From positions 96,001-160,000 of IMG/VR virus record IMGVR_UViG_3300014205_000003: a stretch of DNA of 64,000 nucleotides. One strand, 5' to 3'. The translations under genes were made by a program, and so were the position numbers. Position 1 is the stretch's first letter. Each line of letters begins with the position of its first letter. This document shows, piece after piece, positions 5,158-60,937 of the stretch. The stretch comes from a virus (Duplodnaviria; Caudoviricetes). The notes below the pieces were generated by a model, which was not told the DNA's origin, searched no databases, and saw nothing but the letters and a program-made list of their open reading frames with translations.

Positions 5158-5312
5158 TGAACACACTTATCAAAGACCCTGTAGACATTAAGTGCTTGGA
5201 CATCTCAACAGCTCACATTACAGCTACAGACTCAAAGCTTCTGGAACAAGCCTGTGAAGAGGACAACCCAAGTCTGTCCGTATACGATTATAGTTACCAA
5301 CTAAGGAGCTAG
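5157..5312 (+). pseudogene. 5' fragment of a small protein (LDISTAHIT motif, DUF5983-like), truncated by TnpB cassette 1
   Basis: MNTLIKDPVDIKCLDISTAHITATDSKLLEQACEEDNPSLSVYDY then runs into the element end (AGTTACC) and stops; no 3' half on the other side. Confidence 0.6.
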
Positions 5313-5400
5313 TTGATTTGTCACGGAAGGGGGACTATAAGCTCCCCTCATCAGAATGTTTTTGGCTGCATTGAAGTCGGCATCCATCGTCACTCCACAA
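5290..5400 (-). ncRNA. Putative omegaRNA scaffold overlapping the tnpB 3' end; guide predicted to begin ~AATCGTATACGGACAGAC
   Basis: Hairpins GGGG-AGCTTATAGT-CCCC and CAACTA-GCTCCT-TAGTTG conserved in cassette 2; the 5' limit of the RNA is not determined. Confidence 0.55.
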
Positions 5401-6368
5401 GCAGTACAACAGAATGACTCTCCCTTTCGGGACAGTTTGTCTACCGCTCCGCACAAGCTACATGTCTGTGAAGAGTAAGCAGAGAAGACTTTCGTGTATC
5501 TAATGCCTTTTTCTTCACTGACTAGCTGAAGCCGACTCAAAACTTTTGAGTAGCTCCAGCGTTGCAACTTGTTCATGAATTGCTTGCTAATCTTGCCTTT
5601 AGAACCCTTCTTAACGTCTTTCAAATCTTCTACTACAAGCTCTTGAATATTGCGCAAGTCGAGAAGGTTTACCGATTGGTTGATCTTCTGATCCCGCTCT
5701 GTGAGAGCTTTCTTGAAGGCTTTAGACCCTTGTTTCTTCCTAGCTATTTTCTTGTAGACCTGTTCCATACCTACGTCGTAAATTTGCTTATCAGAAGAAG
5801 CAAGAAGTTTCTTATATCCGCAGTCAAGCCCTATAGAAGCTCCAGTAGCAGGGCTAGGAGATTCTTTCTCGAAAAAGATGTCAAGATACCACTTGCCATT
5901 TACTTTACGCAAGCAAGAAGACTTCTTAAGAGTCCAACCGTTCTGACTGAATTTAAGAAACTGCTTGTGACGTTTTGAAGGAATCTTAAGTACAATGTGG
6001 TTGCCAAGAGAGACCAATTTTATCCAAAAGTCAAAGGTGTTGTGTTCTGTATAGAATGTGCAGATTTTTTGATTTAGGCCAAACGTCTTTTGCGTGATCT
6101 TCGGCTTTGATGCTTTCTTCGTCTTGTTCTTTCTGGCTCTTGTTTTTTGAAGAATGCCAAAAGCTTGAACGAATAAACATCGACGTAAATCACAGCCTAG
6201 CCGAGTTTGAATCTTAGGAAGCTTGTCAAACTGTCTTGCGGAAGGATCGTTCCAAAAGTGATCTACGTAGAGCTGGAGAACCTTCAAAGCTTCGTTACCT
6301 ACAGTGTCGAGCTTCTGGAGCTTTCCAGTATTTGCAAAATTCAAGGACATTTGAACGGAACGAATCAC
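5301..6368 (-). CDS. tnpB: TnpB RNA-guided endonuclease
   Basis: RuvC motifs IGLDCG, VVEDL, DADFNAAKNI and Zn finger CSLCG...CTACG; all three catalytic acids intact. Confidence 0.92.
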   Translation of the reverse strand: MIRSVQMSLNFANTGKLQKLDTVGNEALKVLQLYVDHFWNDPSARQFDKLPKIQTRLGCDLRRCLFVQAFGILQKTRARKNKTKKASKPKITQKTFGLNQKICTFYTEHNTFDFWIKLVSLGNHIVLKIPSKRHKQFLKFSQNGWTLKKSSCLRKVNGKWYLDIFFEKESPSPATGASIGLDCGYKKLLASSDKQIYDVGMEQVYKKIARKKQGSKAFKKALTERDQKINQSVNLLDLRNIQELVVEDLKDVKKGSKGKISKQFMNKLQRWSYSKVLSRLQLVSEEKGIRYTKVFSAYSSQTCSLCGAVDKLSRKGESFCCTACGVTMDADFNAAKNILMRGAYSPPSVTNQLAP

Positions 6369-12335: not shown

Positions 12336-14897
12336 TGAAAATCAAACTTACCGTCCGTCAAAATCAGTTCCTAGTCTCTCCTTGGCCTCTCTGCCTGGAG
12401 AAGGCTTGTACAGTCACCCTTACTCAGAAAAAATTCTTCTACGACCCGAAAGATCCTCGTCCTATTACCTTCACGCACATCCCTATGTATACGAAGCTTT
12501 CTGAACAAGGAGGCATCGTCTACACAGGATTCCTTCAGAGGGTCCTTAAAGCCCTTGCAAAGGAAGAACACGAAGTGGAAGTCGAAGATCAGCGCATCAA
12601 GCCTTCTGGCACGGTTCCTGAGCTTCCTGAAGGCTCTGAAGGATATCGTGCAGGACAGCGAGAGTTCATTCACGCAATCCTCAACAATCACAGCGGTATT
12701 GGACAAGCTCCTCCAGCCTTTGGAAAGTCCTTTTGCATAGGACAGATCTGTAAGGTTCTGTGCAAGGAGAAGATCTTGGTCACTACGTCTAGGAAGACTG
12801 TGGTGACGATGCTCCTGCAACGTCTCAAAGCTACACTGCCTGACAGGCGAATCAAGCTTTGTGATGGTGCAAAGCCATTTGACGAAACTTGTGATATTGT
12901 AGTGTGCTCGTCAAAATCCCTCCACAAGATTCCTACAGAGTGGCCTCAAGTTCTTCTATTCGATGAAGTGCATGGAGCTGCTGGTCCTCAGGTCTGTCGC
13001 GTACTCGGAAATATGACAAATGTCCGTTTCTACGGTTTTAGCGCAACTCCTACTGGCAGAGGGGATAACGGAGACAAACTTGTAGAAGCTTTGTTTGGTC
13101 CTGTTATTTACAAGATGAACTATGAGCAAGCTTTGGCTAATGGTAATGTCACGCAGACACAAGTCCGTATGGTGCCTATCAAAGGTGCCAATCTCGAGTT
13201 CCACGACACTACTGCAATGAATCGGTATGGCTATTGGCGAAACACACAACGCAATAAGAAGATTGCAGAGGTTGTGGAAGCGTTGCAAGCTGAAGGCTTA
13301 GAAAAGATCCTGATCCTTGTAAACACTGCAGAGCATGCCTTCCATCTGCGTTTGTTCCTTCCTAAGTTTAAGATCGTACATGCTGGGCTCTCCTTGGAGA
13401 AGTTCAACGAGTTTAAGAAGAATGGGCTTCTGACGCCTACAGATTCACCAACTGTAGATGTAGATAAACTCGCCATTGAATTCAAGGAAGCCAAAAATCT
13501 GGGAATCATAAGCACGCCTAAGTGGCGTGAGGGTTTTCGCTGGAATGCCCTTCACAGTAGTAATACTGTGTCGAAACTCTCTTAACTGCTGGGAACTCTC
13601 TACACAGAGACAATCAGCAACGAACCTGTCAACACGTCTTGTGGGTGTAGCGCTTATATTAGTAGTGTGTCTAAACAACAACTACAGGGATAGCACTACA
13701 CATGTCTGACTACACAAACAACCGAGATCTCCTATTTCACCAAGTGAAGGTAGGAGATGTCATAAACAACCGAAAAATTCTTCGCATTGTTGGAGAACCA
13801 TTTCGACTGGTAAATGGAAAACACGCGCCTGTTCCTGAAGGGTGGTCTGGCTGTATATACGGCACGTATGAAGTAAATTGCATAAAATGCGACACCACAA
13901 GTATCGTTTGCGGATTACAAATGCAGACAATCAGCTGTAAAAATGGTCCGTGTAGCAAAAGCTTTAAAGACCTGACAAATATGCGTTTTGGTCAGTTAAC
14001 AATTTTAGCTTATGTACCACATTACAACAAAACAAAAGAACGAGGTGTGAGTTGGCTTACACGCTGCGACTGCGGGCGTGAAACTGTTGTATTTGGCAGG
14101 ATTCTTGTAGATCCAAAGCGTCCTAAAACGTGTTGCAACGTTTGTGCAAGAGCGTCTAAGTCACGAAAACGGAGACTTCCTGAGAGTCTTGCAGGATGGC
14201 GAGAATACTTCAGCAAGACAAAACGGGATTCTCATAAAAAACAAAGAGCTTTCGATTTGTCTTTTGAGGAGTTTAGACGTGTTGCAAGTTTAAACTGCGC
14301 TTACTGCGGAGCCGCCCCGTGTTTGATGTATCATCACACGGAAGTTGTGAGAAATGGGATAGACCGTGTGGATAGTAAACTTGGATACACGTCAACTAAT
14401 GTTGTTGCTTGTTGTAAGATCTGTAATAGAATGAAAATGGAGCTAGACTGCCAGACGTGGTTGGAGCATGTTAGAAAAATAGCAAAACACACAGAACAGA
14501 TTCGCTCAACGACTATCCCTAACGGGAGTACACCTAAGCAGGTGGAAACAGAGAGGGTCCTTCCACAAGAAGGACTTTGATATAGTCTGATCTGCATGGT
14601 GACATGCAGCTGCAGGTGGTGCTGCGGACAGTATCTAGCGCATACTGTTGAACACATATGGTTGATTTCCCAGATTTGTCAGTAGTTGTTCGTGCTGATG
14701 GACTTACGGGGTCAATTCCGTCCATTCAGATCGGTGGTCGCAGTGCTCGTGTATTTGAAAATAAGACTCAGGCTCTTGTAATTGACTTCGAGGATCACTT
14801 TGGTCCTGACATGATGGCCAGAAGCGCCAAGCGAGTCTTGAACTATAAGACTGAAGGTTGGCAAGTTGTAACATGGAACATAGGAGATGCTGAATGA
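12335..14897 (+). CDS. UvsW-like SF2 helicase, spliced join(12335..13534,14661..14897), 478 aa
   Basis: APPAFGKS, DEVH, SATP; splicing restores motif V WREG|VDFPDL followed by motif VI QIGGRSAR. Confidence 0.9.
13535..14660 (+). mobile_element. Group I intron in the helicase gene, carrying an endonuclease ORF
   Basis: 5' exon ends in U; P1 GAGGGU/GCCCUU; core AACTGCTGGGAA, AATCAGCA, CAACGACTA, GATATAGTC; terminal G at 14660; in-frame join. Confidence 0.92.
13702..14580 (+). CDS. Intron-encoded HNH-type homing endonuclease
   Basis: DLTNMRFGQL...WLTRCDCG N-terminal motif; CAYCG...NGIDRVDSKLGYTSTNVVACCKICNRMK nuclease domain; C-terminus overlaps the intron core. Confidence 0.85.
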   Translation: MSDYTNNRDLLFHQVKVGDVINNRKILRIVGEPFRLVNGKHAPVPEGWSGCIYGTYEVNCIKCDTTSIVCGLQMQTISCKNGPCSKSFKDLTNMRFGQLTILAYVPHYNKTKERGVSWLTRCDCGRETVVFGRILVDPKRPKTCCNVCARASKSRKRRLPESLAGWREYFSKTKRDSHKKQRAFDLSFEEFRRVASLNCAYCGAAPCLMYHHTEVVRNGIDRVDSKLGYTSTNVVACCKICNRMKMELDCQTWLEHVRKIAKHTEQIRSTTIPNGSTPKQVETERVLPQEGL

Positions 14898-46405: not shown

Positions 46406-47461
46406 TCAGTTTGTCACGGAAGGGGGACTATAGGCTCCCCTCTGTCGGATGTTGATGGCCGCATTGAAGTCTGCATCCATCTTCATTCCACACGCGGTAC
46501 AACAGAATGACTCTCCCTTTCGGGACAGTTTGTCTACCGCTCCGCACAAGCTACATGTCTGCGAAGTAAAGGCAGGATTAATCCTCGTAAGGGTTAGTCC
46601 TGCTTCTTCACAAACCATCTGAAGTTTGTCCAAAACTTTTGGATAGCTCCAGCGTTGTAACTTGTTGTTAAATTGCTTGCTAATCTCGCCTTTAGAACCC
46701 TTCTTCACATCCTTGAGATCTTCGACTACAAGTTCTTGAATGTTAGTAAGATCAATCAGCTTTACAGACTGATTGATCTTTTGGTCACGTTCCTTCAATG
46801 CTCTTTTAAATGCTTTAGATCCTTGTTTCTTCCTAGCGATTTTCTCATAGACATTTTCCATGCCTACGTCGTAGGTTTTCTGATCGGAAGAAGCAAGGAG
46901 TTTCTTGTATCCACAATCAAGGCCTAAGAATGTTCCCTTCGATGTACTGGGAGTATCTTTCTCGAAGAATACATCCAAGTACCACTTCCCATTGACTTTA
47001 CGTAAGCAAGAGGACTTCTTAAGAAGCCAGCCGTGCTGACTGAACTTGAGAAATTGCTTGTGCTTACATGAAGGGATCTTAAGATTTATCTTGTTTCCTA
47101 GACAAAAGAGTTTAATCCAGAAGTCGAAAGAATTCTGCTTAGTAGAGAAAGTACAGATAAGTTCCGTGAGATTAAAAGTTTTTTGTTTGAGTACAGGCTT
47201 AGATGCTTTCTTTACTTTGTTCTTTCGAGCTCGTAGTTTCTTAAGTACGTCAAAGGCTTGAATGAAAAGACATCTTTGAAGGCGAGCGGCGAGCCACGTT
47301 GGAATTGGAGGAAGTTGATCGAACTTTGTAGCAGAAGGATCTTTCCAGAAGTGCTCTACGTAGAGATTAAGTACTCTCAGGGCTTCCACACTGAAAGTAT
47401 CAAGCTTTTGGAGCTTCCCGGCGTTTGCAAAGTTCAACGACATTTGTACTCTACGAATCAC
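46406..47461 (-). CDS. tnpB: TnpB RNA-guided endonuclease (close paralog of 5301..6368)
   Basis: LGLDCG, VVEDL, DADFNAAINI, Zn finger. Confidence 0.92.
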   Translation of the reverse strand: MIRRVQMSLNFANAGKLQKLDTFSVEALRVLNLYVEHFWKDPSATKFDQLPPIPTWLAARLQRCLFIQAFDVLKKLRARKNKVKKASKPVLKQKTFNLTELICTFSTKQNSFDFWIKLFCLGNKINLKIPSCKHKQFLKFSQHGWLLKKSSCLRKVNGKWYLDVFFEKDTPSTSKGTFLGLDCGYKKLLASSDQKTYDVGMENVYEKIARKKQGSKAFKRALKERDQKINQSVKLIDLTNIQELVVEDLKDVKKGSKGEISKQFNNKLQRWSYPKVLDKLQMVCEEAGLTLTRINPAFTSQTCSLCGAVDKLSRKGESFCCTACGMKMDADFNAAINIRQRGAYSPPSVTN

Positions 47462-48450: not shown

Positions 48451-50715
48451 GTGAAAGACAAAACGATGGCTCCTAAGAACATCCCAGTCCTGACACCCGC
48501 AGAACTCTCCGACAAGATCTTTGAAGGAAAGTACAAACACTCTAAAGATACTAATCGGGACGATATGTTCCGACGTAATGCTAAAGCCGCAGCCGCTGTA
48601 CGGCAGCTAGAAGGTACTGCAGAGGAACTGGAAGAATCCTTCTTTCAACTGATGAAAAAGGAACTCTTCTTTCCAGCAGGTCGTATCCTATCGAACTTAG
48701 GTACTGGGCGGCAACAGGTTACAACATTTAACTGCGCAATTGCAAACACCATCCCGGATAGCATGGAAGGTATCTTTGACGTCTTGAAGATGGGTGCCTT
48801 GACACAGAAAGCCGGAGCCGGTATCGGCTATGACTTCTCTACGATTCGGCCAAAGAATCAACTGGTTAAAGGTGTAGAGAGCAAAGCGTCTGGTCCTATC
48901 AGCTTCATGAAAGTCTTTGACAGCGCTTGTCAGAGTATTATGAGTGCTGGCCTGAGACGTGGCGCAAACATCGCCATCCTTCGAATCGATCATCCAGACA
49001 TCGAAGAGTTTATCACAGCTAAGTCCTCTGCAGGTGTACTGGAGATGTTCAATCTCTCCTGCGGTTTAACTGACGAATTTTTAAAAGCTGTGGAAGAGAA
49101 CAAGACGTTCGATCTGAGGTTCGGAGGAGAAGTCTACAGCACAGTAAAAGCTCGAGACCTCTGGGACAAACTGATCAAGAACAATTACGACTATGCAGAA
49201 CCTGGAGTGCTCTTTCTTGATACCGTAAATCGAAATAATTCACTTTACTATTGTGAGACTATTTCCTGCTGTAATCCTTGTGGCGAAATAGTTGGACCTC
49301 CCTATGGCGTTTGTCTGCTCGGTTCGATGATTCTTCCCTCGTTCGTAAACAAATATAAAACGTTTGACTGTTCTAGGTTTTACAGTGCTGTAAGACTAGC
49401 TACCCATTTCCTCGACAATGTCATTGACATCTCTAAGTTCCCTATTAAGGAACAAGAGAAAGAGGCTAAGAACAAACGCCGAATGGGTCTCGGTGTTACA
49501 GGCTTTGCAGATGCTCTTATCAAGATGGAAATTCCTTACAATTCCCCAGAAGCCGTTAGATTTGCCTCGGAAGTAGCTAAACAATTGGCCAACGCTGCGT
49601 ACGGTGCTTCTTCAGATCTTGCTGGGAAGTTTGGTTCGTTTCCTGCATACGTCGCTGAGAAACATAAGGAGAGCGTTCCTTACAAAACCCTTGCGTTAGA
49701 GTTCCCTGATACTGCGAATAACATCGAGCGTAAAGGTCTTCGAAACAGTCACTTGATTAGTATCGCTCCTACAGGAACTATCTCGCTACTGGCCTCGAAC
49801 ATCTCTAGTGGAATTGAGCCTATCTTCGCTTACGACTACACTCGTAAATTTCGTACAGCTGATGGTGAAGAACTGTTCAAGGTCTACGACAAGGTGTACT
49901 ATGAGTGGCTTCAGGCTAATCCTGACAAGAAGCGTCCTGCGTACATGGTGTCGGTGGATGATCTGACTCCTGATGATCATTTGAATGTTCAAGCGGCGTT
50001 TCAGAAGTGGGTGTGCTCGTCAATCTCCAAGACGATCAACTGTCCTGCAGATATCAAGTACGATGAGTTTTCTAAGATCTATATGAAGGCATGGAAGATG
50101 TCGCTCAAGGGGGCAACGTGCTACCACCCCTCTGGTAAGTTGAAGGCTGTCTTGGTAAAAGACACTCCTGAGAAGCCTGTAGAAACTCTTCCTATTGTGT
50201 CTGACGCTGTTCCAGAACGCCCTGATCAGCTTACGGGTGTGACGTACAAGCTGAAAGACGGTCAAGGTGTGTCGTACTACATAACCATCAACGATCTCGT
50301 GGAGGGCTCCCAAACCAGGCCTTTCGAAATCTTCTGCAGTAGCAAGAACCTTGCTGCCGCTGCAACACTCGCTACGATGACTAGGCTCCTTTCCACCATC
50401 TTTAGGCGTGAGAAGGATATCTCATTCATTGTCAATGAGTTGTCGCAGATTTCAGATCCGTCTGGGGGCTATTGGAGTAATGGTGTGTTCTACTGCAGTC
50501 TCCAAGCACACATCGCCGCATGTATCGACGCTCACGTCCAGGCCCTCTCTAAGAAGGGTGTGTTCAAGGGTAAGCATGTGAAGGACAAGACAGTTACTCC
50601 AGAGTCTGAGAAGAAGGGTAAGGTAACAGATCCTTGTCCTCTGTGCGGCAAGCAATTGATCCGTAAGGAAAATTGTCTGGCTTGCTCGGAGTGTACGTGG
50701 TCCCGTTGCCAATAG
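48451..50715 (+). CDS. nrdJ: Class II (adenosylcobalamin-dependent) ribonucleotide reductase with C-terminal TSCPD-like and Zn-ribbon domains
   Basis: PAGRIL, FNC, RRGAN, AEPG, NPCGE, CLLGS, IAPTGT, SISKTIN; no adjacent beta subunit. Confidence 0.9.
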   Translation: MKDKTMAPKNIPVLTPAELSDKIFEGKYKHSKDTNRDDMFRRNAKAAAAVRQLEGTAEELEESFFQLMKKELFFPAGRILSNLGTGRQQVTTFNCAIANTIPDSMEGIFDVLKMGALTQKAGAGIGYDFSTIRPKNQLVKGVESKASGPISFMKVFDSACQSIMSAGLRRGANIAILRIDHPDIEEFITAKSSAGVLEMFNLSCGLTDEFLKAVEENKTFDLRFGGEVYSTVKARDLWDKLIKNNYDYAEPGVLFLDTVNRNNSLYYCETISCCNPCGEIVGPPYGVCLLGSMILPSFVNKYKTFDCSRFYSAVRLATHFLDNVIDISKFPIKEQEKEAKNKRRMGLGVTGFADALIKMEIPYNSPEAVRFASEVAKQLANAAYGASSDLAGKFGSFPAYVAEKHKESVPYKTLALEFPDTANNIERKGLRNSHLISIAPTGTISLLASNISSGIEPIFAYDYTRKFRTADGEELFKVYDKVYYEWLQANPDKKRPAYMVSVDDLTPDDHLNVQAAFQKWVCSSISKTINCPADIKYDEFSKIYMKAWKMSLKGATCYHPSGKLKAVLVKDTPEKPVETLPIVSDAVPERPDQLTGVTYKLKDGQGVSYYITINDLVEGSQTRPFEIFCSSKNLAAAATLATMTRLLSTIFRREKDISFIVNELSQISDPSGGYWSNGVFYCSLQAHIAACIDAHVQALSKKGVFKGKHVKDKTVTPESEKKGKVTDPCPLCGKQLIRKENCLACSECTWSRCQ

Positions 50716-50718
50716 TTC

Positions 50719-50967
50719 ATGAAGCAGTACAAACACTCTGAGTATTGTTCTTACGTTCTGCATCACCTTGCCTGTGATTGTGGTGCAGATCGCAGGACAT
50801 GGAAAGAGTGGTTAGCTAAGGGGCTGCATGTGAAGAAGGGCGAACACGCTGTAGAGACGACTACTACAGGTCAAGCTCTCTTTACACACAGTCAGGTTAC
50901 AAGCAATGAATCAACTATTCAGCGAGGTCGCTGGTGGTTGGATGATAGTGTAAATTGTCATTGGTAA
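50719..50967 (+). CDS. Hypothetical protein
   Basis: TWKEWLAKGLHVKKGEHA...LFTHSQV motif. Confidence 0.65.
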   Translation: MKQYKHSEYCSYVLHHLACDCGADRRTWKEWLAKGLHVKKGEHAVETTTTGQALFTHSQVTSNESTIQRGRWWLDDSVNCHW

Positions 50968-50974
50968 AGTTCTT

Positions 50975-51288
50975 CGTCAGCAGGGATCATATTGGCATCG
51001 AAGGGGTTGTGGTGTTTCGCTAAGAGCTTGCTGACGGTCGAGGTGCTCGAAATCTCTCTTAGCGAATTCCTTTCCAGGTGTGCCCCAGTTCTCCCGCACT
51101 CTTAAGAAACGATCCCAGGGAGAACAACTTACTATTTAGTCTTGTCAGAGGGTTGACCATTGGCGCGGAGGTCACGTGCGTGTTGTAGCAGATGTTCCTC
51201 TGACAGTGTGGTACGATTCGCTCTGCTACAGCTCCTAACAGATAGCCAAGACTCCTCCTACCTGTACCGTAACGTGCTTAGAGGAGTC
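50975..51288 (+). ncRNA. Tandem pair of structured, pseudoknotted RNAs (50975..51125 and 51143..51288), unassigned
   Basis: Each unit has two crossing 9-11 bp helices plus a terminal 8-bp hairpin; different sequence but the same topology; G-U pairs favour the + strand. Confidence 0.65.
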
Positions 51289-51932: not shown

Positions 51933-52100
51933 ATGGAATACACATCCGTTAGTAAGGCCGCTAAGATGATGGGAGTTCATCCAGACTCAATACGCCGGTG
52001 GTTCGACGAAGGGAAACTTAAAGGATACTTGACTCCGTCAAATCAACGTAAGATCTCTGTTGAGTCAATTAAGGTTCTTACAGGAGAATCTCCTAAGTGA
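51933..52100 (+). CDS. 55-aa MerR/excisionase-type HTH protein
   Basis: 52 of 55 residues identical to 6365..6532; TGA overlaps the tnpB GTG. Confidence 0.85.
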   Translation: MEYTSVSKAAKMMGVHPDSIRRWFDEGKLKGYLTPSNQRKISVESIKVLTGESPK

Positions 52101-53410
52101 TAAGAACGACTCGTCACAAACTAACTGATAGTAACGCCCTGAAGCAACAAAGGTTACTTTATGTTTTGACTGAGAGTAAGAACGTTGCACAAACGTACTT
52201 AGACTATTTGTGGACGTATGGTTGTACTTGGCAAACTAAAGATAGTTTGGGCGCTGGTATCCTACACACCCTAGACATATCAAGGAATCTTTTTGAACAT
52301 CCGTCTATGCTGTCAAACGTAGATTTAGAAAACAGCATTCAGGGATTCTCATCGGCCTTATCGGCGCGTCTGAAGAAGTGTATACTTACTCAAGTCTTAG
52401 GGATAGTTGGAGCATCTATAGAGAAGCAGAAGAAGCGTTTGTGGCAGCTTAACAAAAGCATAACAGAAGGAAAGTCTTGCAAGCAACTGCTCAAGAAAAT
52501 CGGACAGAATGCTCCTGTTAAACCAGATCTTTCTAACTTCTCATTAGAACTAAACACACTTTGTGTTGACCTCCGACGTTTACAAAACTCGCCGTTCGAC
52601 TATTTTGTGCAACTTAAATGCTTGGGAAAAGGTATTCCTTCCATTCGTCTTCCCATTAAGTTGCACAGAGCTGATAGGAAGTTTCAATCCTGGAGAATGC
52701 TTACCAGTTTTCTGATTTCAGAGAACGAAATACAGATACGATATGAAAAAGAGACACCGCCAAAGCTTGAACAGGGCTCGGTAGTAGGTGCCGATCAAGG
52801 TTTGAAAACAACCATAACCTTCTCTACAGGCTCTATCACTCCAGCAACAGACCCTCACGGTCATTCCCTAGAAGACGTCACTCATAAATTGTCTAGACGA
52901 CGCAAAGGCTCCAAGGGCTTTAAAAGAGCTCAAGACCATCGAAAGAACTTAATCAACTTTCAGATCAAACAACTGAACTTAACTGGCATCAAACAAATCA
53001 ATCTAGAGAAGGTCTGGAACATTGGTTACAAGACTCGTAAAAGTCGATACTTGTCGCATTGGTGTAATACACTCATCCGAGACAGACTGATCCAAGCTGG
53101 AGAAGAACAAGGGGTCCTTGTGAAACTTCAGCCATCAGTCTACAGAAGTCAGAGATGCAGTGCATGTGGGTTGGTACGAAAAGCCAATCGAAAAGGAAAG
53201 GAGTACAAATGCCTTTGTGGCTTTCATCTAGATGCAGATCTGAATGCTAGTCTCAATCATGTAGTTGAACTCCCTGAGATTTCGTTTGACTTTCGTAAGT
53301 TGAATCTAAACAGAAAGGGTTTCTATTGGAAACCTGAAGGTCTGTTTGATTTAACTGGTAGGGAGTTTGCAGTCCCCTATTCCTCACAAGAAACTGACTC
53401 TAAGTTGTAA
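52097..53410 (+). CDS. tnpB: TnpB-family RNA-guided endonuclease (divergent)
   Basis: VVGADQG, INLEKV, SQRCSACG...CLCG, DADLNASLN. Confidence 0.88.
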   Translation: MIRTTRHKLTDSNALKQQRLLYVLTESKNVAQTYLDYLWTYGCTWQTKDSLGAGILHTLDISRNLFEHPSMLSNVDLENSIQGFSSALSARLKKCILTQVLGIVGASIEKQKKRLWQLNKSITEGKSCKQLLKKIGQNAPVKPDLSNFSLELNTLCVDLRRLQNSPFDYFVQLKCLGKGIPSIRLPIKLHRADRKFQSWRMLTSFLISENEIQIRYEKETPPKLEQGSVVGADQGLKTTITFSTGSITPATDPHGHSLEDVTHKLSRRRKGSKGFKRAQDHRKNLINFQIKQLNLTGIKQINLEKVWNIGYKTRKSRYLSHWCNTLIRDRLIQAGEEQGVLVKLQPSVYRSQRCSACGLVRKANRKGKEYKCLCGFHLDADLNASLNHVVELPEISFDFRKLNLNRKGFYWKPEGLFDLTGREFAVPYSSQETDSKL

Positions 53411-53711: not shown

Positions 53712-54566
53712 ATGACAGTTGCAAAGATTTACCCAAACAACGATTCTGCTTGTCCTGTCTGTAAAGGTCCGACAGTCCTTACAGAACTTACATGTCGGCA
53801 CAAGAAAGCGCTCACATTTGTTCTAAGCTGTAAGAATCACAAGTATTGCTACGAGTGTTCTAGCTCGAGTGTCTCTACACTTGCTAGTGCGCTCTCAGCG
53901 ACATACAGCGCTATGAATACACCTCCTCGTATGCAGACTGGATTTCCTACGTGCCCTCGCTGTGGTAAACAGTTTATTGAGGTTACGCATGACAGCAACA
54001 ACTACGACTTCAAGTGTCCAGAGTGCAACTTGTGGAAGATGGCTCCTACATATGCAGAACTCGAACTGCAGTTGGAAGAGATAGACGCCGATTGTAAGGA
54101 TTACGACAAGTCTATGGGACGGGCTAACAACATACGAGTCCAGAACGTGGTGAAAGAGAACGAGGAGCGATTCAACAACATGCCAACGAATTCTACAGAA
54201 CTCTCCGACGAGGAGAAAGAGAAGCTCCTTAAGGAAATGAAAGAGACAGGTAAGGGAATCAAATTCGATCAGGAAAAGCTTAAGTACTCCCTCCTACCTT
54301 GGGATGCTGTTAAAGAGGTTGTGAAAGTACTGATGATTGGTGCACGCAAGTACTCAGCTTCAAATTGGGTAGTGGTTCCCGGAGCCTCTGGAGGCACTGG
54401 TCGATACGCTAACGCGGCTATGCGACACCTTGTTTCCTATATGTCAGGAGAGAAGAATGACCCAGAGACAAAACTGTCACATTTAGCGCATTGTGCGTGC
54501 TGCATTCTTTTTCTGCTTGCTTATGATCTTAGAGGCATTGTATCTAAACCAGAGGAATCCAAGTAA
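53712..54566 (+). CDS. Zn-ribbon + DUF5664-like dATP/dGTP diphosphohydrolase domain protein
   Basis: KFDQEK..YSLLP...GARKY...NW...AAMRHL...DPETKLSHLAH. Confidence 0.75.
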   Translation: MTVAKIYPNNDSACPVCKGPTVLTELTCRHKKALTFVLSCKNHKYCYECSSSSVSTLASALSATYSAMNTPPRMQTGFPTCPRCGKQFIEVTHDSNNYDFKCPECNLWKMAPTYAELELQLEEIDADCKDYDKSMGRANNIRVQNVVKENEERFNNMPTNSTELSDEEKEKLLKEMKETGKGIKFDQEKLKYSLLPWDAVKEVVKVLMIGARKYSASNWVVVPGASGGTGRYANAAMRHLVSYMSGEKNDPETKLSHLAHCACCILFLLAYDLRGIVSKPEESK

Positions 54567-54567
54567 C

Positions 54568-55689
54568 ATGTACAAAGAATTCCCCGCTCTGTTCAAGAAA
54601 ACGTCAACAGGTGCCCTTCAGACCTGGAAAATCTGTGTCGACTACGACAAAATCATCACCTTCTTTGGTCAGGTCGGTGGCGCAATTCAAGAGACTGCTC
54701 CTACGATCTGTCAAGGGAAGAATCTGGGTAAAGCCAATTCTACTACAGGAGAGACTCAAGCTCTCTTGGAAGCTGAAGCACAGTGGACGAAGAAGCTGAA
54801 GAAAGATTATGTCAAGACTCCTGAAGAAGCTATGGCAGGCAAGTCCAGTGAGTTGATCGAAGGCGGAATCCTTCCGATGCTTGCTCACAAGTTCAGCGAA
54901 CAAGGACACAAGATTAAATATCCATGTGCATGTCAGGGTAAGCTTGACGGCCATAGATGTATTGCTGTTATTGACGAGAATGGTAAGTGTACTTTGTGGA
55001 GTCGTACTCGTAAGCAGATCTTCAGTGCTCCTCACATCGTTGCAGAGATTGAGAAGAAAGCTTTAAAGAGCTACGTGCTGGACGGGGAGTTATATAACAG
55101 TCGATATAACGACAGGTTTGAAGAGCTTACTAGTTTGATTCGTCAGGAAGTTCCTTCCCCTAACTGTACAGAGATTGAATATCACATCTACGATTATCCG
55201 ATAGCGGATAAGACCTTTGAAGTGCGTAATCAGTTATTGCGCACTTGGTTCATGTGGCCTGAGGCAAATTCTCATCTGGTTTACGTTGAGACTCTCAAGG
55301 TCAACGACGAAGACGAGCTGATGCTTGCCTTCAACAAGTTCCTTGCAGACGGTTACGAAGGTGCTATTGCACGCAATGTCGATGGCATGTATGTCAATAA
55401 GCGTTCGTATGATCTGCAGAAGATCAAAGAGTTCGACGACGCAGAGTTCAAGATTGTAGGAGTTGAAGAAGGTAAGGGTAAGCTTGCAGGTCATGGGATC
55501 TTCGTTTGTGTGACTGACGAAGGTCAGACGTTCAACGCTAAGATGAAGGGTTCTACAGAGGCTCTGAAGGACTACTTGGAGCATCCTGAGAAGTATATCG
55601 GAAAGCTGTTAACGGTACAGCATCAGGGTAAGTCTGCTAGTAAAATTCCCAGGTTTCCTGTAGCTCTTCACATTCGTCAAGATGTTTAA
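54568..55689 (+). CDS. ATP-dependent DNA ligase
   Basis: PMLAH, KLDGHR, LDGELY, YEGAIAR, KRS..LQKIK, PRFP. Confidence 0.92.
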   Translation: MYKEFPALFKKTSTGALQTWKICVDYDKIITFFGQVGGAIQETAPTICQGKNLGKANSTTGETQALLEAEAQWTKKLKKDYVKTPEEAMAGKSSELIEGGILPMLAHKFSEQGHKIKYPCACQGKLDGHRCIAVIDENGKCTLWSRTRKQIFSAPHIVAEIEKKALKSYVLDGELYNSRYNDRFEELTSLIRQEVPSPNCTEIEYHIYDYPIADKTFEVRNQLLRTWFMWPEANSHLVYVETLKVNDEDELMLAFNKFLADGYEGAIARNVDGMYVNKRSYDLQKIKEFDDAEFKIVGVEEGKGKLAGHGIFVCVTDEGQTFNAKMKGSTEALKDYLEHPEKYIGKLLTVQHQGKSASKIPRFPVALHIRQDV

Positions 55690-58701: not shown

Positions 58702-60937
58702 ATGCTACTCAACGCGGCTCGTACTACTGTTTGGAACTGGGACAATGTCACTTCTTCACTCTGCCCTGACTGCGGCGAAAAGCTTATGGCTCGTCGCTGT
58801 GAAGACAAGATCTGGCACTGGGCTCATTACCCTCTCCCTAAAGGTGCAACCCCTCGTGCATGTCATGCAGAAGAGACTGCTTGGCGCTTGCAGTGGAAGT
58901 TTGCACAGATGTGCAATGATGGCTGGGAGATCGAGAAGCGTGTAGAGCTTGAAGGTAAGATTACTGTTTTGGATGCTTACAATGCTGAACAGAATCAAGT
59001 AACTATCTTCGTTCACAGCACTTCACCTAAGTCCCTCGAACGATTCGAACGTCTCAAGCGCAGTTCCTACAACTGCTACTGGATCAACTAAGGTCCCTTT
59101 GTCTGGTAACAGGCATTGAAAAGAAAGTGAATTGCTGGGACACCTAAAGTGCACATCTGTGCGCCATGGCAATCAGCAGCCGACCTCTTAATAGACCCTA
59201 GTGGCCTCTAAGAGAAGGTTCAACGACTAGTCCGTAAGGACGTAGGGTCAAGCGGCCCGAAGCACTCTCTCCTGAGCAATTAGGAGAATGATATAGCCTT
59301 TGCCACAGTGAAAATTGTGGGAGTCCTGATTAACCATCAGCAAACCGGCAGTACTTAGCGAGTACTGTTGAAAACAACTATACGAAGTAGAAATTTCGTT
59401 TTGTTTCTCAAGTAGTTTACAAATTCTGATTTGATGTATTATAATAATCCATATGCAGCGTTCACATAAAATTCGATTAGATCCTACAGTCAAGCAAGAA
59501 GTCGCAATGCGACAAGCTGCTGGAACTGCGAGATTTACTTGGAATTACGCGCTGGCTATGTGGAAAAAGCAATACGACGATTTTAAGCTAGGGCTGGCGA
59601 CTAAACCAGATGTCTACAGTATCTCCAGACGTTGGACACAAGAAAAACCAGATTGGGCTCGAGAAGTTGCATGCGGTCTTCAGAACCGTGCAATTATGAC
59701 TCTCGGAAAAGCTATGATCAGTTTTTGGAACGGGAAGACAAATTTCCCGAAATTCCATAAGAAGTCTGACAAGTCTTCTTTCTATGTGGCTAATAGTCAT
59801 GGTTATATCAAAGATGGCCGGATACACATTACGAATGTTGGAAAAGTAAAACTAGCAGAAGCTCCCCGTTTTGAGGGGCGAACGCTGTGTTATACTGTTT
59901 CTCATTCTGCAGGTAAATGGTTTGTGTCTGTTCAAGTAGAATTGACAGAACCTATTGTACCTAATCCGTCCTTGTCTGTAGTTGGTGTAGACGTCGGGAT
60001 TAAGAACATTGCAGTTGCAAGCGATGGCACTTCGTTGCCAAATCCTCATTTTCTTATCAAGCAACAACGACAGTTGAAATACTATCAACGTCAATTAGCG
60101 CGACAAGTAAAAGGATCAAATCGCCGCAATGCAACGAAAACCCGTATTGCAAAGATCCATCAGAAGATTGTAAATCAACGTCAGGACTGTGTCCACAAGT
60201 TCACTACAGCTCTTGCCAAAAACCACGGCACTGCAGTGATCGAAACACTGGACATCGAGAGTATGAAAAGTTCAGACAAGGTCTGGATGAATCGTGCTCT
60301 CCAAGACACCTGCATGCGCGAGGTCCACAGGCAACTGGAGTACAAGATGAGGGAGCTCGTAAAAGCTCCTAAGTTCTTCCCCAGCTCCAAGACCTGCTCG
60401 TCATGTGGAGATGTCAAAGAGTCCTTGCCACCCTCTATTAGGGTGTACAGATGTCAGTGTGGCTTAGAGATCGACCGCGATCTCAACGCTGCACTGAACT
60501 TGAGAAACAGGAGTTGGGTAACAACTTCTACATGCGTGGAGACCTCTAAAGGGTCTACGAAGCGCAAAACGAAACTCGTTGCCGCTAGGTAACGAACCTC
60601 GTATTACAGCTATGACGGAAAGGCCCTTGGCTCTGCTCGTACACGTCGATGCATGTGGGATGATACGTTGAAGAAGTACATGTTGTATCAACGCATGTTG
60701 AAGCCTGCTGCTATGGGTCTCTACAAGGCTACAGGAGGCGCTGTACATCGCTATGAGGGTCTGTACCACTGTAAGGACGTGAATCCCTATTATGGCTATG
60801 GAAAGGTTCGTGACATTACTCGTTGGACAGCGTTGGAAGGTCCGTTGACGCAGAAGGCTTTGGAGAACTTCCACAGTGCTCTGAGTCTGATGAACTTCCT
60901 TCGCAGGGATGATGAAAAGCCGCAGGTGAGTCCTTGA
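58702..60937 (+). CDS. CoiA-like putative nuclease, spliced join(58702..59084,60610..60937), 236 aa
   Basis: CPDCG...WHWAH...C..EETAW N-terminus; splicing gives YNCYWI|YDGKALGS in frame. Confidence 0.75.
59085..60609 (+). mobile_element. Group I intron carrying tnpB (IStron-like, no tnpA)
   Basis: P1 GGAU|C/GGUCC with U-G at the splice site; core GAATTGCTGGGA, AATCAGCAG, CAACGACTA, GATATAGCC; terminal G 60609; in-frame exon join. Confidence 0.88.
59453..60592 (+). CDS. tnpB: TnpB (IS605 OrfB type with N-terminal HTH)
   Basis: HKIRLDP...AGTARFTWN; VGVDVG, VIETL, SSKTCSSCG, DRDLNAALNL. Confidence 0.93.
   Translation: MQRSHKIRLDPTVKQEVAMRQAAGTARFTWNYALAMWKKQYDDFKLGLATKPDVYSISRRWTQEKPDWAREVACGLQNRAIMTLGKAMISFWNGKTNFPKFHKKSDKSSFYVANSHGYIKDGRIHITNVGKVKLAEAPRFEGRTLCYTVSHSAGKWFVSVQVELTEPIVPNPSLSVVGVDVGIKNIAVASDGTSLPNPHFLIKQQRQLKYYQRQLARQVKGSNRRNATKTRIAKIHQKIVNQRQDCVHKFTTALAKNHGTAVIETLDIESMKSSDKVWMNRALQDTCMREVHRQLEYKMRELVKAPKFFPSSKTCSSCGDVKESLPPSIRVYRCQCGLEIDRDLNAALNLRNRSWVTTSTCVETSKGSTKRKTKLVAAR

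Follow-up and report, generated by a model that had tools for sequence, protein, structure and literature searches.

A TnpA-less IStron of group A type in the CoiA-like gene of a large phage

The DNA analysed here, a stretch of 64,000 nt that we call the window, comprises bases 96001-160000 of the IMG/VR virus record IMGVR_UViG_3300014205_000003 (Duplodnaviria; Caudoviricetes), a genome of 188,069 bp with direct terminal repeats that is rated complete; the best DNA match to the window comes from a landfill metagenome. Within it, a CoiA-like gene is interrupted at 59085..60609 (+ strand) by an element of 1,525 nt composed of a group I intron, a tnpB gene and an omegaRNA-like end. The element is an IStron, and thus belongs to an already-known class; it is of the group A type, from which it departs in its target motif, in its terminus and in having no TnpA transposase. 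Its anatomy and exact boundaries, the conservation and covariation of three RNA modules, the intact residues of the nuclease and the absence of TnpA are all observed. The best explanation, and probably the right one, is a TnpA-less phage IStron of group A type, in which splicing, omegaRNA production and homing would proceed as the original prediction, made from the sequence alone, had proposed.

Exon 1 of the CoiA-like gene (58702..59084, + strand) holds 127 codons and the first two bases of an isoleucine codon, and exon 2 (60610..60937, + strand) supplies the third base, a further 108 codons and the stop. Without splicing, the open reading frame (ORF) with the CoiA_N match (Pfam, 30.3 bits at a cut-off of 26.3) spans 58702-59091 and meets a stop four codons past TGGAT, where exon 1 ends; a second open frame starts again at 60610. 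An uninterrupted homolog of 239 aa, P0001, was found on a Logan contig from a related phage (locus L009). Exon 1 is 76% identical to residues 1-127 of P0001 and exon 2 is 55% identical to residues 129-233, aligned from its first residue onwards, while residue 128, an isoleucine, corresponds to the split codon AT|C, leaving no gap between the two alignments. The gap-free match to both exons therefore places the junction at TGGAT|CTATGAC and restores W-I-Y-D-G, in agreement with the proposed splice product WI|YDG and with the proposed 5' exon end, TGGAT. At the DNA level the empty site of L009 reads TTCTGGAT|CTACGACGGAAA and the joined exons of the window read TACTGGAT|CTATGACGGAAA. Comparison with P0001 and L009 thus delimits the intervening sequence as exactly 59085-60609, with the boundaries U|C...G|C that group I rules require.

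On the upstream side the window locus and the empty allele are syntenic, their neighbouring genes there being 66% identical; the downstream neighbour is not conserved between them. Contigs that are 93-95% identical, from a freshwater-sediment run and one further study, also bridge the 3' junction. In the contigs of four runs no joint skipping the element was found, contigs being uninformative on rare intronless variants. A megablast search of GenBank phages with the locus gave no match, and scans of IMG/VR for close relatives with exon 1 and with TnpB alone returned nothing; relatives surfaced only through an alignment query. When IMG/VR was searched with the joined exon sequence, the sole match (L201) was rejected as a chance match in an unrelated protein of 1,230 aa.

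The ribozyme core (59085..59394, + strand) extends from P1 to P9.2 and contains an insert of the P7.1/P7.2 type, which makes it IA2-like. The Rfam model RF00028 matches 59075-59320 end to end with a sub-threshold score of 44.4 bits (E = 1.4e-9). Its alignment shows P1, P2, P3-P8, the P7.1/P7.2-type insert and P9, after which the hairpins P9.1 and P9.2 follow to about 59375. At the gathering threshold Rfam gave no match in the window, at E <= 0.01 the whole-window scan returned the intron only, and a permissive scan of 58900-60800 produced no other credible family at the 3' end of the element. Relatives from the same family exceed the gathering score (59.2 bits for L018, 71.7 bits for L020), and an nhmmer profile built from the intron cores of the family scores 283 bits on the window core. 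Compensatory changes were found in 45 of the 61 predicted pairs in an alignment of 16 family cores, and they fall in P2, P4-P6, P7, P7.1, P8, P9, P9.1 and P9.2. A conserved P3-P9 core backed by covariation, one of the marks of a group I intron, is thus present. P1 is a hairpin, UGGAUC/GGUCC, in which the Rfam alignment pairs U59084 with G59093, so that the terminal U of the 5' exon faces a G, and the intron itself ends in G60609, both as in group I introns. The predicted group I core is thereby borne out, as is the terminal G, which lies 17 nt after the TAA of tnpB.

The 3' splice site lies more than a kilobase from this core, and a long-range helix would bring the two together. Its 5' strand (59380..59388, + strand) and its 3' strand (60596..60604, + strand), the latter directly before the terminal TTACAG, form eight of nine possible pairs in the window (ATACGAAGT/ACCTCGTAT). 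The same arrangement recurs in 54 family loci, where the segment just 3' of P9.2 pairs with the 6-10 nt before ACAG. Many compensating variants, for instance ACACGAAUCA/UGAUUCGUGU, CAUGGUCUCA/UGAGAUCAUG and CUUGGUCUUG/CAAGAUCAAG, occur among these loci, and the mean pairing score is 7.1, compared to 5.65 (standard deviation 1.09) for strands combined from different loci. The pairing that had been suggested to loop out the ORF is therefore conserved with compensation across the family, and the comparison supports the distal end, G60609, as the functional 3' splice site.

The tnpB gene (59453..60592, + strand) encodes a protein of 379 aa with three Pfam domains above their cut-offs: HTH_OrfB_IS605 (54.6 bits), OrfB_IS605 (99.8 bits) and the zinc-ribbon domain Cas12f1-like_TNB (54.8 bits). 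It matches ISDra2 TnpB over its full length (8EXA, 8H1J; E = 1e-43). The RuvC residues D180, E264 and D343 and the zinc-finger residues C315, C318, C334 and C336 align with the ISDra2 motifs and are invariant among the aligned relatives, as expected from the claim that tnpB is intact; the second cysteine pair is CxC, not CxxC. Ahead of the gene, a promoter scan found a predicted sigma-70-type promoter at 59416..59445 (+ strand; TTTACA, 18 nt, TATAAT; 11 of 12 matches), whose -10 box ends 8 nt before the tnpB ATG. An equivalent TTGACA/TATAAT pair lies 5' of tnpB in five relatives (L010, L016, L017, L018 and L019), suggesting that tnpB is transcribed independently of the CoiA-like gene, here probably almost without a leader. 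At 59445-59455 the -10 box lies close to the ATG and no Shine-Dalgarno sequence is seen, which suggests a leaderless or near-leaderless mRNA; L017 and L019 have the same look, whereas in L010 and L018 a GAGG motif lies in a short leader.

The last 160 nt of the element fold far better than shuffled sequences (z = -5.1). The predicted omegaRNA-like scaffold (60509..60609, + strand) lies nearly all within the 3' coding region of tnpB and ends in ACAG. Despite this coding region, its fold is common to L010 and L018, 15 of 43 pairs showing compensatory changes; when 20 family members are compared, such changes affect 16 of the 17 consensus pairs. All the main parts recur in these 20 members: first a hairpin whose loop is of the GGUCA type, then a GCCUG...CAGG(C) stem around a hairpin of variable sequence, the GAAGCAGGAAG box, another variable hairpin at the terminus, and TCRTG(..)ACAG as the last bases. 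The terminus itself, ...TCRTG(T)(T/G)ACAG, is kept in more than 50 loci that have unrelated 3' flanks. In most family members the scaffold reaches 40-90 nt beyond the stop codon of tnpB, and in the subgroup formed by the window, L010, L018 and L022 the ORF continues to within 12-17 nt of the element end. In position and behaviour this 3' end matches the omegaRNA scaffolds of IS605 elements and IStrons (10.1101/2023.11.20.567912), and its conserved fold points to a guide-RNA scaffold. The element suggests that an omegaRNA scaffold can sit almost wholly in coding sequence, which is relevant to finding compact guide RNAs. Abutting the conserved end, the first 16 nt of exon 2 (60610..60625, + strand) are the predicted guide segment, and correspond to the target in the empty site. 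This sequence is unique in the phage genome and, by analogy with IS605 and IStron biology (10.1101/2023.11.20.567912), would guide TnpB.

The claim that this IStron has no TnpA stands: a search of the complete 188-kb genome for a Y1 transposase (PF01797) gave no match, and control genomes were positive. The Y1 (HUH) TnpA carried by autonomous group A copies is thus missing here. The gap between intron core and tnpB is 59 nt in the window and, in the 54 family loci where it was measured, mostly about 60-150 nt, too short for a tnpA gene in the relatives. The 5' flank TGGAT (59080..59084, + strand) is both the exon strand of P1 and a candidate target-adjacent motif (TAM). Automated calling of P1 and the 5' splice site was noisy for distant members, and only clear cases were used; their flanks are TGGAT (three times), AGGAT, CAGGT, GAGGT, TGAAT and AGAAT, a purine-rich NRRRT. 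For L018 a 5' splice site after CGGAT at position 231 was dropped in favour of position 240, after CAGGT, on the grounds of P1 pairing, the parallel with L025 and the spacing of polymerase motifs. Every flank also has to pair with the internal guide sequence of its element, and therefore a TAM is inseparable from P1 by sequence. The original prediction had taken the nearness of TGGAT to the known motif TTGAT as a sign of a TAM. The flank is indeed TGGAT, and it may act as a TAM, but the argument from nearness is weakened by the varied, P1-confounded flanks of the relatives.

The closest TnpB proteins among 1.8 billion representatives are at most 53% identical, apart from one partial match at 60%. 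The alignment query retrieved 99 related tnpB loci with 30-69% identity, 80 of them metagenomic and 19 viral. Their sources are landfill, rumen and gut samples and phage contigs of about 160-195 kb, several of which carry three or four copies each. A search with the core profile found an intron core directly upstream of tnpB in at least 72 of the 99. The same layout is seen in L010, where a different gene is interrupted, in L018, where a complete element lies in a DNA polymerase A gene, and in L016 and L019. Copies in unrelated genes, as in L018 and at many other flanks, indicate the mobility that is expected of group A IStrons. In bacterial and archaeal genomes (one per species) the tnpB relatives are at most 42% identical, mostly cyanobacterial IS605 copies without an intron, the exceptions being L121 and L122, which are also the only two of the 80 bacterial-genome loci with the intron. 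L121, at 55% identity, and the metagenome locus L025 are one and the same contig, which had been placed in a bacterial bin; L122, 116 kb long and from a Lysinibacter bin, has two intron copies. GenBank phages contained no tnpB above 36% identity. In a FastTree tree of TnpB the association with the intron is clustered, with 12 changes over the 141 rows for which its presence or absence could be judged, and it does not form a single clean clade; since the branches are long, the tree supports no conclusion on single or multiple origins.

Several features of the related loci were seen in passing. All four Logan contigs with the closest TnpB, P0002 (L010-L013), start at the same base of the intron core, near P3, and L016 likewise starts within the intron; the assemblies probably break there because several intron copies, or variants with and without the intron, coexist in those samples. 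Three contigs each hold two family introns no more than 2-3.5 kb apart (L019, 1-214 and 1711-1938; L108, 622-936 and 3544-3854; L122, 2140-2431 and 5652-5904), so that copies can be closely packed in these phages. In L014 (3633-4778) and L015 (351-1496) a 45%-identical tnpB has the same GAAGCAGGAAG...AAGACAG 3' end and no intron; it sits amid tRNA genes, a tmRNA and Y-RNA-like (YrlA) matches, beside a DUF2828 gene, and looks like a stand-alone TnpB within a cluster of RNA genes. In L018 (615-1754) the gene caller gave only the C-terminal 169 aa of tnpB. The same frame is open over 603-1751, and its product, a TnpB of nearly full length, is 55% identical to that of the window, so that the short call looks like a gene-calling artefact and not a frameshift.

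The genome of the phage also holds five further TnpB-like ORFs (351-437 aa, with a Cas12f1-like TNB domain) with no intron core nearby. Three lie in the window at 5301-6368 (- strand), 46406-47461 (- strand) and 52097-53410 (+ strand), and two in G000:C1 at 50432-50992 (- strand) and 54493-55050 (+ strand). Partial matches relate them to the intron-borne TnpB at 31-36% identity. A second group I intron, at about 13535-14660 of the window (RF00028, 24.5 bits), splits a superfamily 2 (SF2) helicase gene, with REG|VDFPD as the likely junction. Its ORF (13702-14580, 292 aa) has no Pfam match, is Cys-rich with HNH-like motifs and runs into the 3' part of the core. The tnpB intron had been said to resemble this helicase intron in its core. 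The two do have their architecture in common and are very similar in P9.2 and the tail, but the helicase intron matches the family profile (31 bits) in its 3' half only, and the ORF-less intron of another phage, L020, is much closer to the tnpB intron. A modular fusion of TnpB and intron, in either direction, is plausible.

How could these parts work together? In the mechanism that we favour, the 5' part of the intron in the CoiA-like transcript would fold into an IA2-like ribozyme, the helix between 59380-59388 and 60596-60604 would loop out the 1.2-kb tnpB module, and splicing at U59084|C59085 and G60609|C60610 would restore a CoiA-like protein of 236 aa. Separately, the promoter at 59416-59445 would drive tnpB, with a transcript that continues through the scaffold into exon 2, and the guide of the resulting omegaRNA would be the first ~16 nt of exon 2. 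TnpB might then cleave an intronless allele, and recombinational repair from an intron-bearing genome would copy the element in. Such RNA-guided homing would explain most economically why a transposase-free phage lineage has a nuclease and a scaffold that are conserved, intact and separately promoted. A broader proposal, which we regard as possible and somewhat less than probable, is that of a phage-restricted IStron lineage that has lost its transposase and uses TnpB-omegaRNA as a programmable homing endonuclease, the 3' exon being both acceptor and guide, and each insertion retargeting the nuclease. If true, retargeting would explain the dozens of copies in different essential genes of phages of about 160-195 kb without TnpA.

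A number of observations weigh against this mechanism. The window core falls short of the curated gathering score of RF00028 (50 bits), and its P7 has one A-C mismatch, in common with one relative. The 5' flanks of the family are only loosely similar and confounded with P1, so no TAM can be called from them; TGGAT lies outside the published group A motifs (TTGAT, ATTAT, TTTAT), and the terminus is ACAG, not TCAG. The only empty allele that was found, in L009, does not match the predicted guide at positions 4 and 13-16, and may therefore not be cleavable. The element is single-copy in this genome, and its relatives have reached different genes without any transposase that would explain this.

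The last three observations would also suit a history in which TnpB does not drive the spread. The element would then be inherited vertically, with rare new sites gained through the Y1 TnpA of host IS200/IS605 elements acting in trans or through reverse splicing, and TnpB-omegaRNA would do no more than guard against its loss, or would itself be a decaying remnant. The relatives occupy many genes although the phage has no TnpA, which homing alone cannot explain, and this site is also filled in relatives from other studies. Against this, the catalytic and zinc-finger residues, the promoter and the scaffold are conserved in a family whose members are only 40-55% identical, which argues for selection on nuclease function; we consider this history unlikely, though it is the strongest competitor of homing. 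The same anatomy would equally serve a TnpB-omegaRNA that is mainly a weapon against competing phages (marker exclusion), cutting the CoiA-like gene of co-infecting intronless relatives so as to skew how the flanking region is inherited or to kill the competitor, with intron transfer as a by-product. This concept has been described for protein homing endonucleases (PMC13565253), and the five intronless TnpB-like genes suggest that the phage uses RNA-guided nucleases more widely; the target is nonetheless limited to one site, and a weapon seems improbable to us. It is very improbable that distal splicing does not occur at all, the CoiA-like gene being split or dead, with an early G near 59384 or none in use, and tnpB a lodged IS-derived gene: the helicase intron and ORF-less L020 do have their 3' splice site about 13-17 nt after P9.2, for which G59384 is the counterpart here, and the Rfam score is below threshold, but both exons are open, in phase and match the uninterrupted homolog end to end, splicing at G59384 would truncate the CoiA-like protein at a stop after about 10 codons, this G lies inside the covarying long-range helix, which indicates selection for the distal end, and the element ends exactly at the family-wide ACAG.

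The element is a usable test case: its boundaries are exact, a related phage has the empty allele, and at least 70 relatives give covariation for every RNA module. To our knowledge, IStrons are the only elements whose single transcript must choose between ribozyme and guide RNA, and all the experimental IStron work that we know of has been done on clostridial elements that have a transposase or derive from ones that do. The present element could serve to ask whether TnpB alone acts as an intron homing endonuclease between co-infecting phages. The idea of TnpB as an intron homing endonuclease, and of TnpA-less IStrons spreading by intron homing, was stated in a 2026 review and not demonstrated (PMC13565253).

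Group A IStrons have been described as an IA2 intron joined to an IS200/IS605 element, with TCAG at the end and TTGAT, ATTAT or TTTAT directly before the insertion, and group B IStrons as IS607-type (Tourasse et al., PMC4227781). The original prediction placed IStrons in Firmicutes chromosomes, which is correct as far as it goes and incomplete, since group B IStrons also occur in phages of C. botulinum (c-st and D-1873) and some IStrons have TnpB only (PMC4227781). Experiments on a group B element have shown splicing, cleavage of the empty site by TnpB and competition between ribozyme and guide RNA on a single transcript (Zedaveinyte et al., 10.1101/2023.11.20.567912). The layout seen here agrees with published IStron biology (PMC4227781; 10.1101/2023.11.20.567912; PMC13565253). 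Our literature search found no paper on a phage-borne, TnpA-less IStron family of ISDra2 type.

The closest known systems are the group A IStrons CdISt1/CdiIStrons of Clostridioides difficile, FnISt1 and their relatives (Braun 2000; Tourasse 2014, PMC4227781). In them, as here, a 5' IA2-type intron is fused to a module with an ISDra2-like TnpB of IS200/IS605 type, the splice sites are also the limits of the element, T is the last base of the exon and ...CAG the 3' terminus, the target is not duplicated, and a structured RNA 3' end abuts the flank that would serve as guide. Unlike them, the present element has no TnpA, nor do the related loci that were measured, as judged by the lack of room; it has the TGGAT flank and ACAG terminus in place of the published target motifs and TCAG (PMC4227781), resides in a large lytic-type phage genome and not in a Firmicute chromosome, and carries a tnpB that extends to within 17 nt of its end, so that the scaffold is almost entirely coding. 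The group B IStrons BcISt1, CboIStron and CbISt3/CbISt4 of c-st and D-1873 are likewise intron-TnpB-omegaRNA chimeras and are found in phages. However, they are IS607-type, with a serine TnpA, GG-ending targets, the TAM TGGG and a CGG terminus, whereas the TnpB described here is of the IS605/ISDra2 type and the element has other ends. With the TnpB-omegaRNA of ISDra2 it shares the catalytic and zinc-finger residues and, as predicted here, a scaffold overlapping the 3' end of tnpB and a 5-nt motif 5' of the target; ISDra2 differs in having TnpA, left-end and right-end (LE/RE) hairpins and the TAM TTGAT, and in having no intron. Finally, the phage introns with protein homing endonucleases (td, nrdB and sunY of T4, and those of Twort) are of the same IA2-like class, interrupt phage protein-coding genes and carry a peripheral nuclease ORF. 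What sets the present element apart from them is a nuclease of the RNA-guided type, placed after P9.2 and adjoining the 3' splice site, whose specificity would come from the 3' exon.

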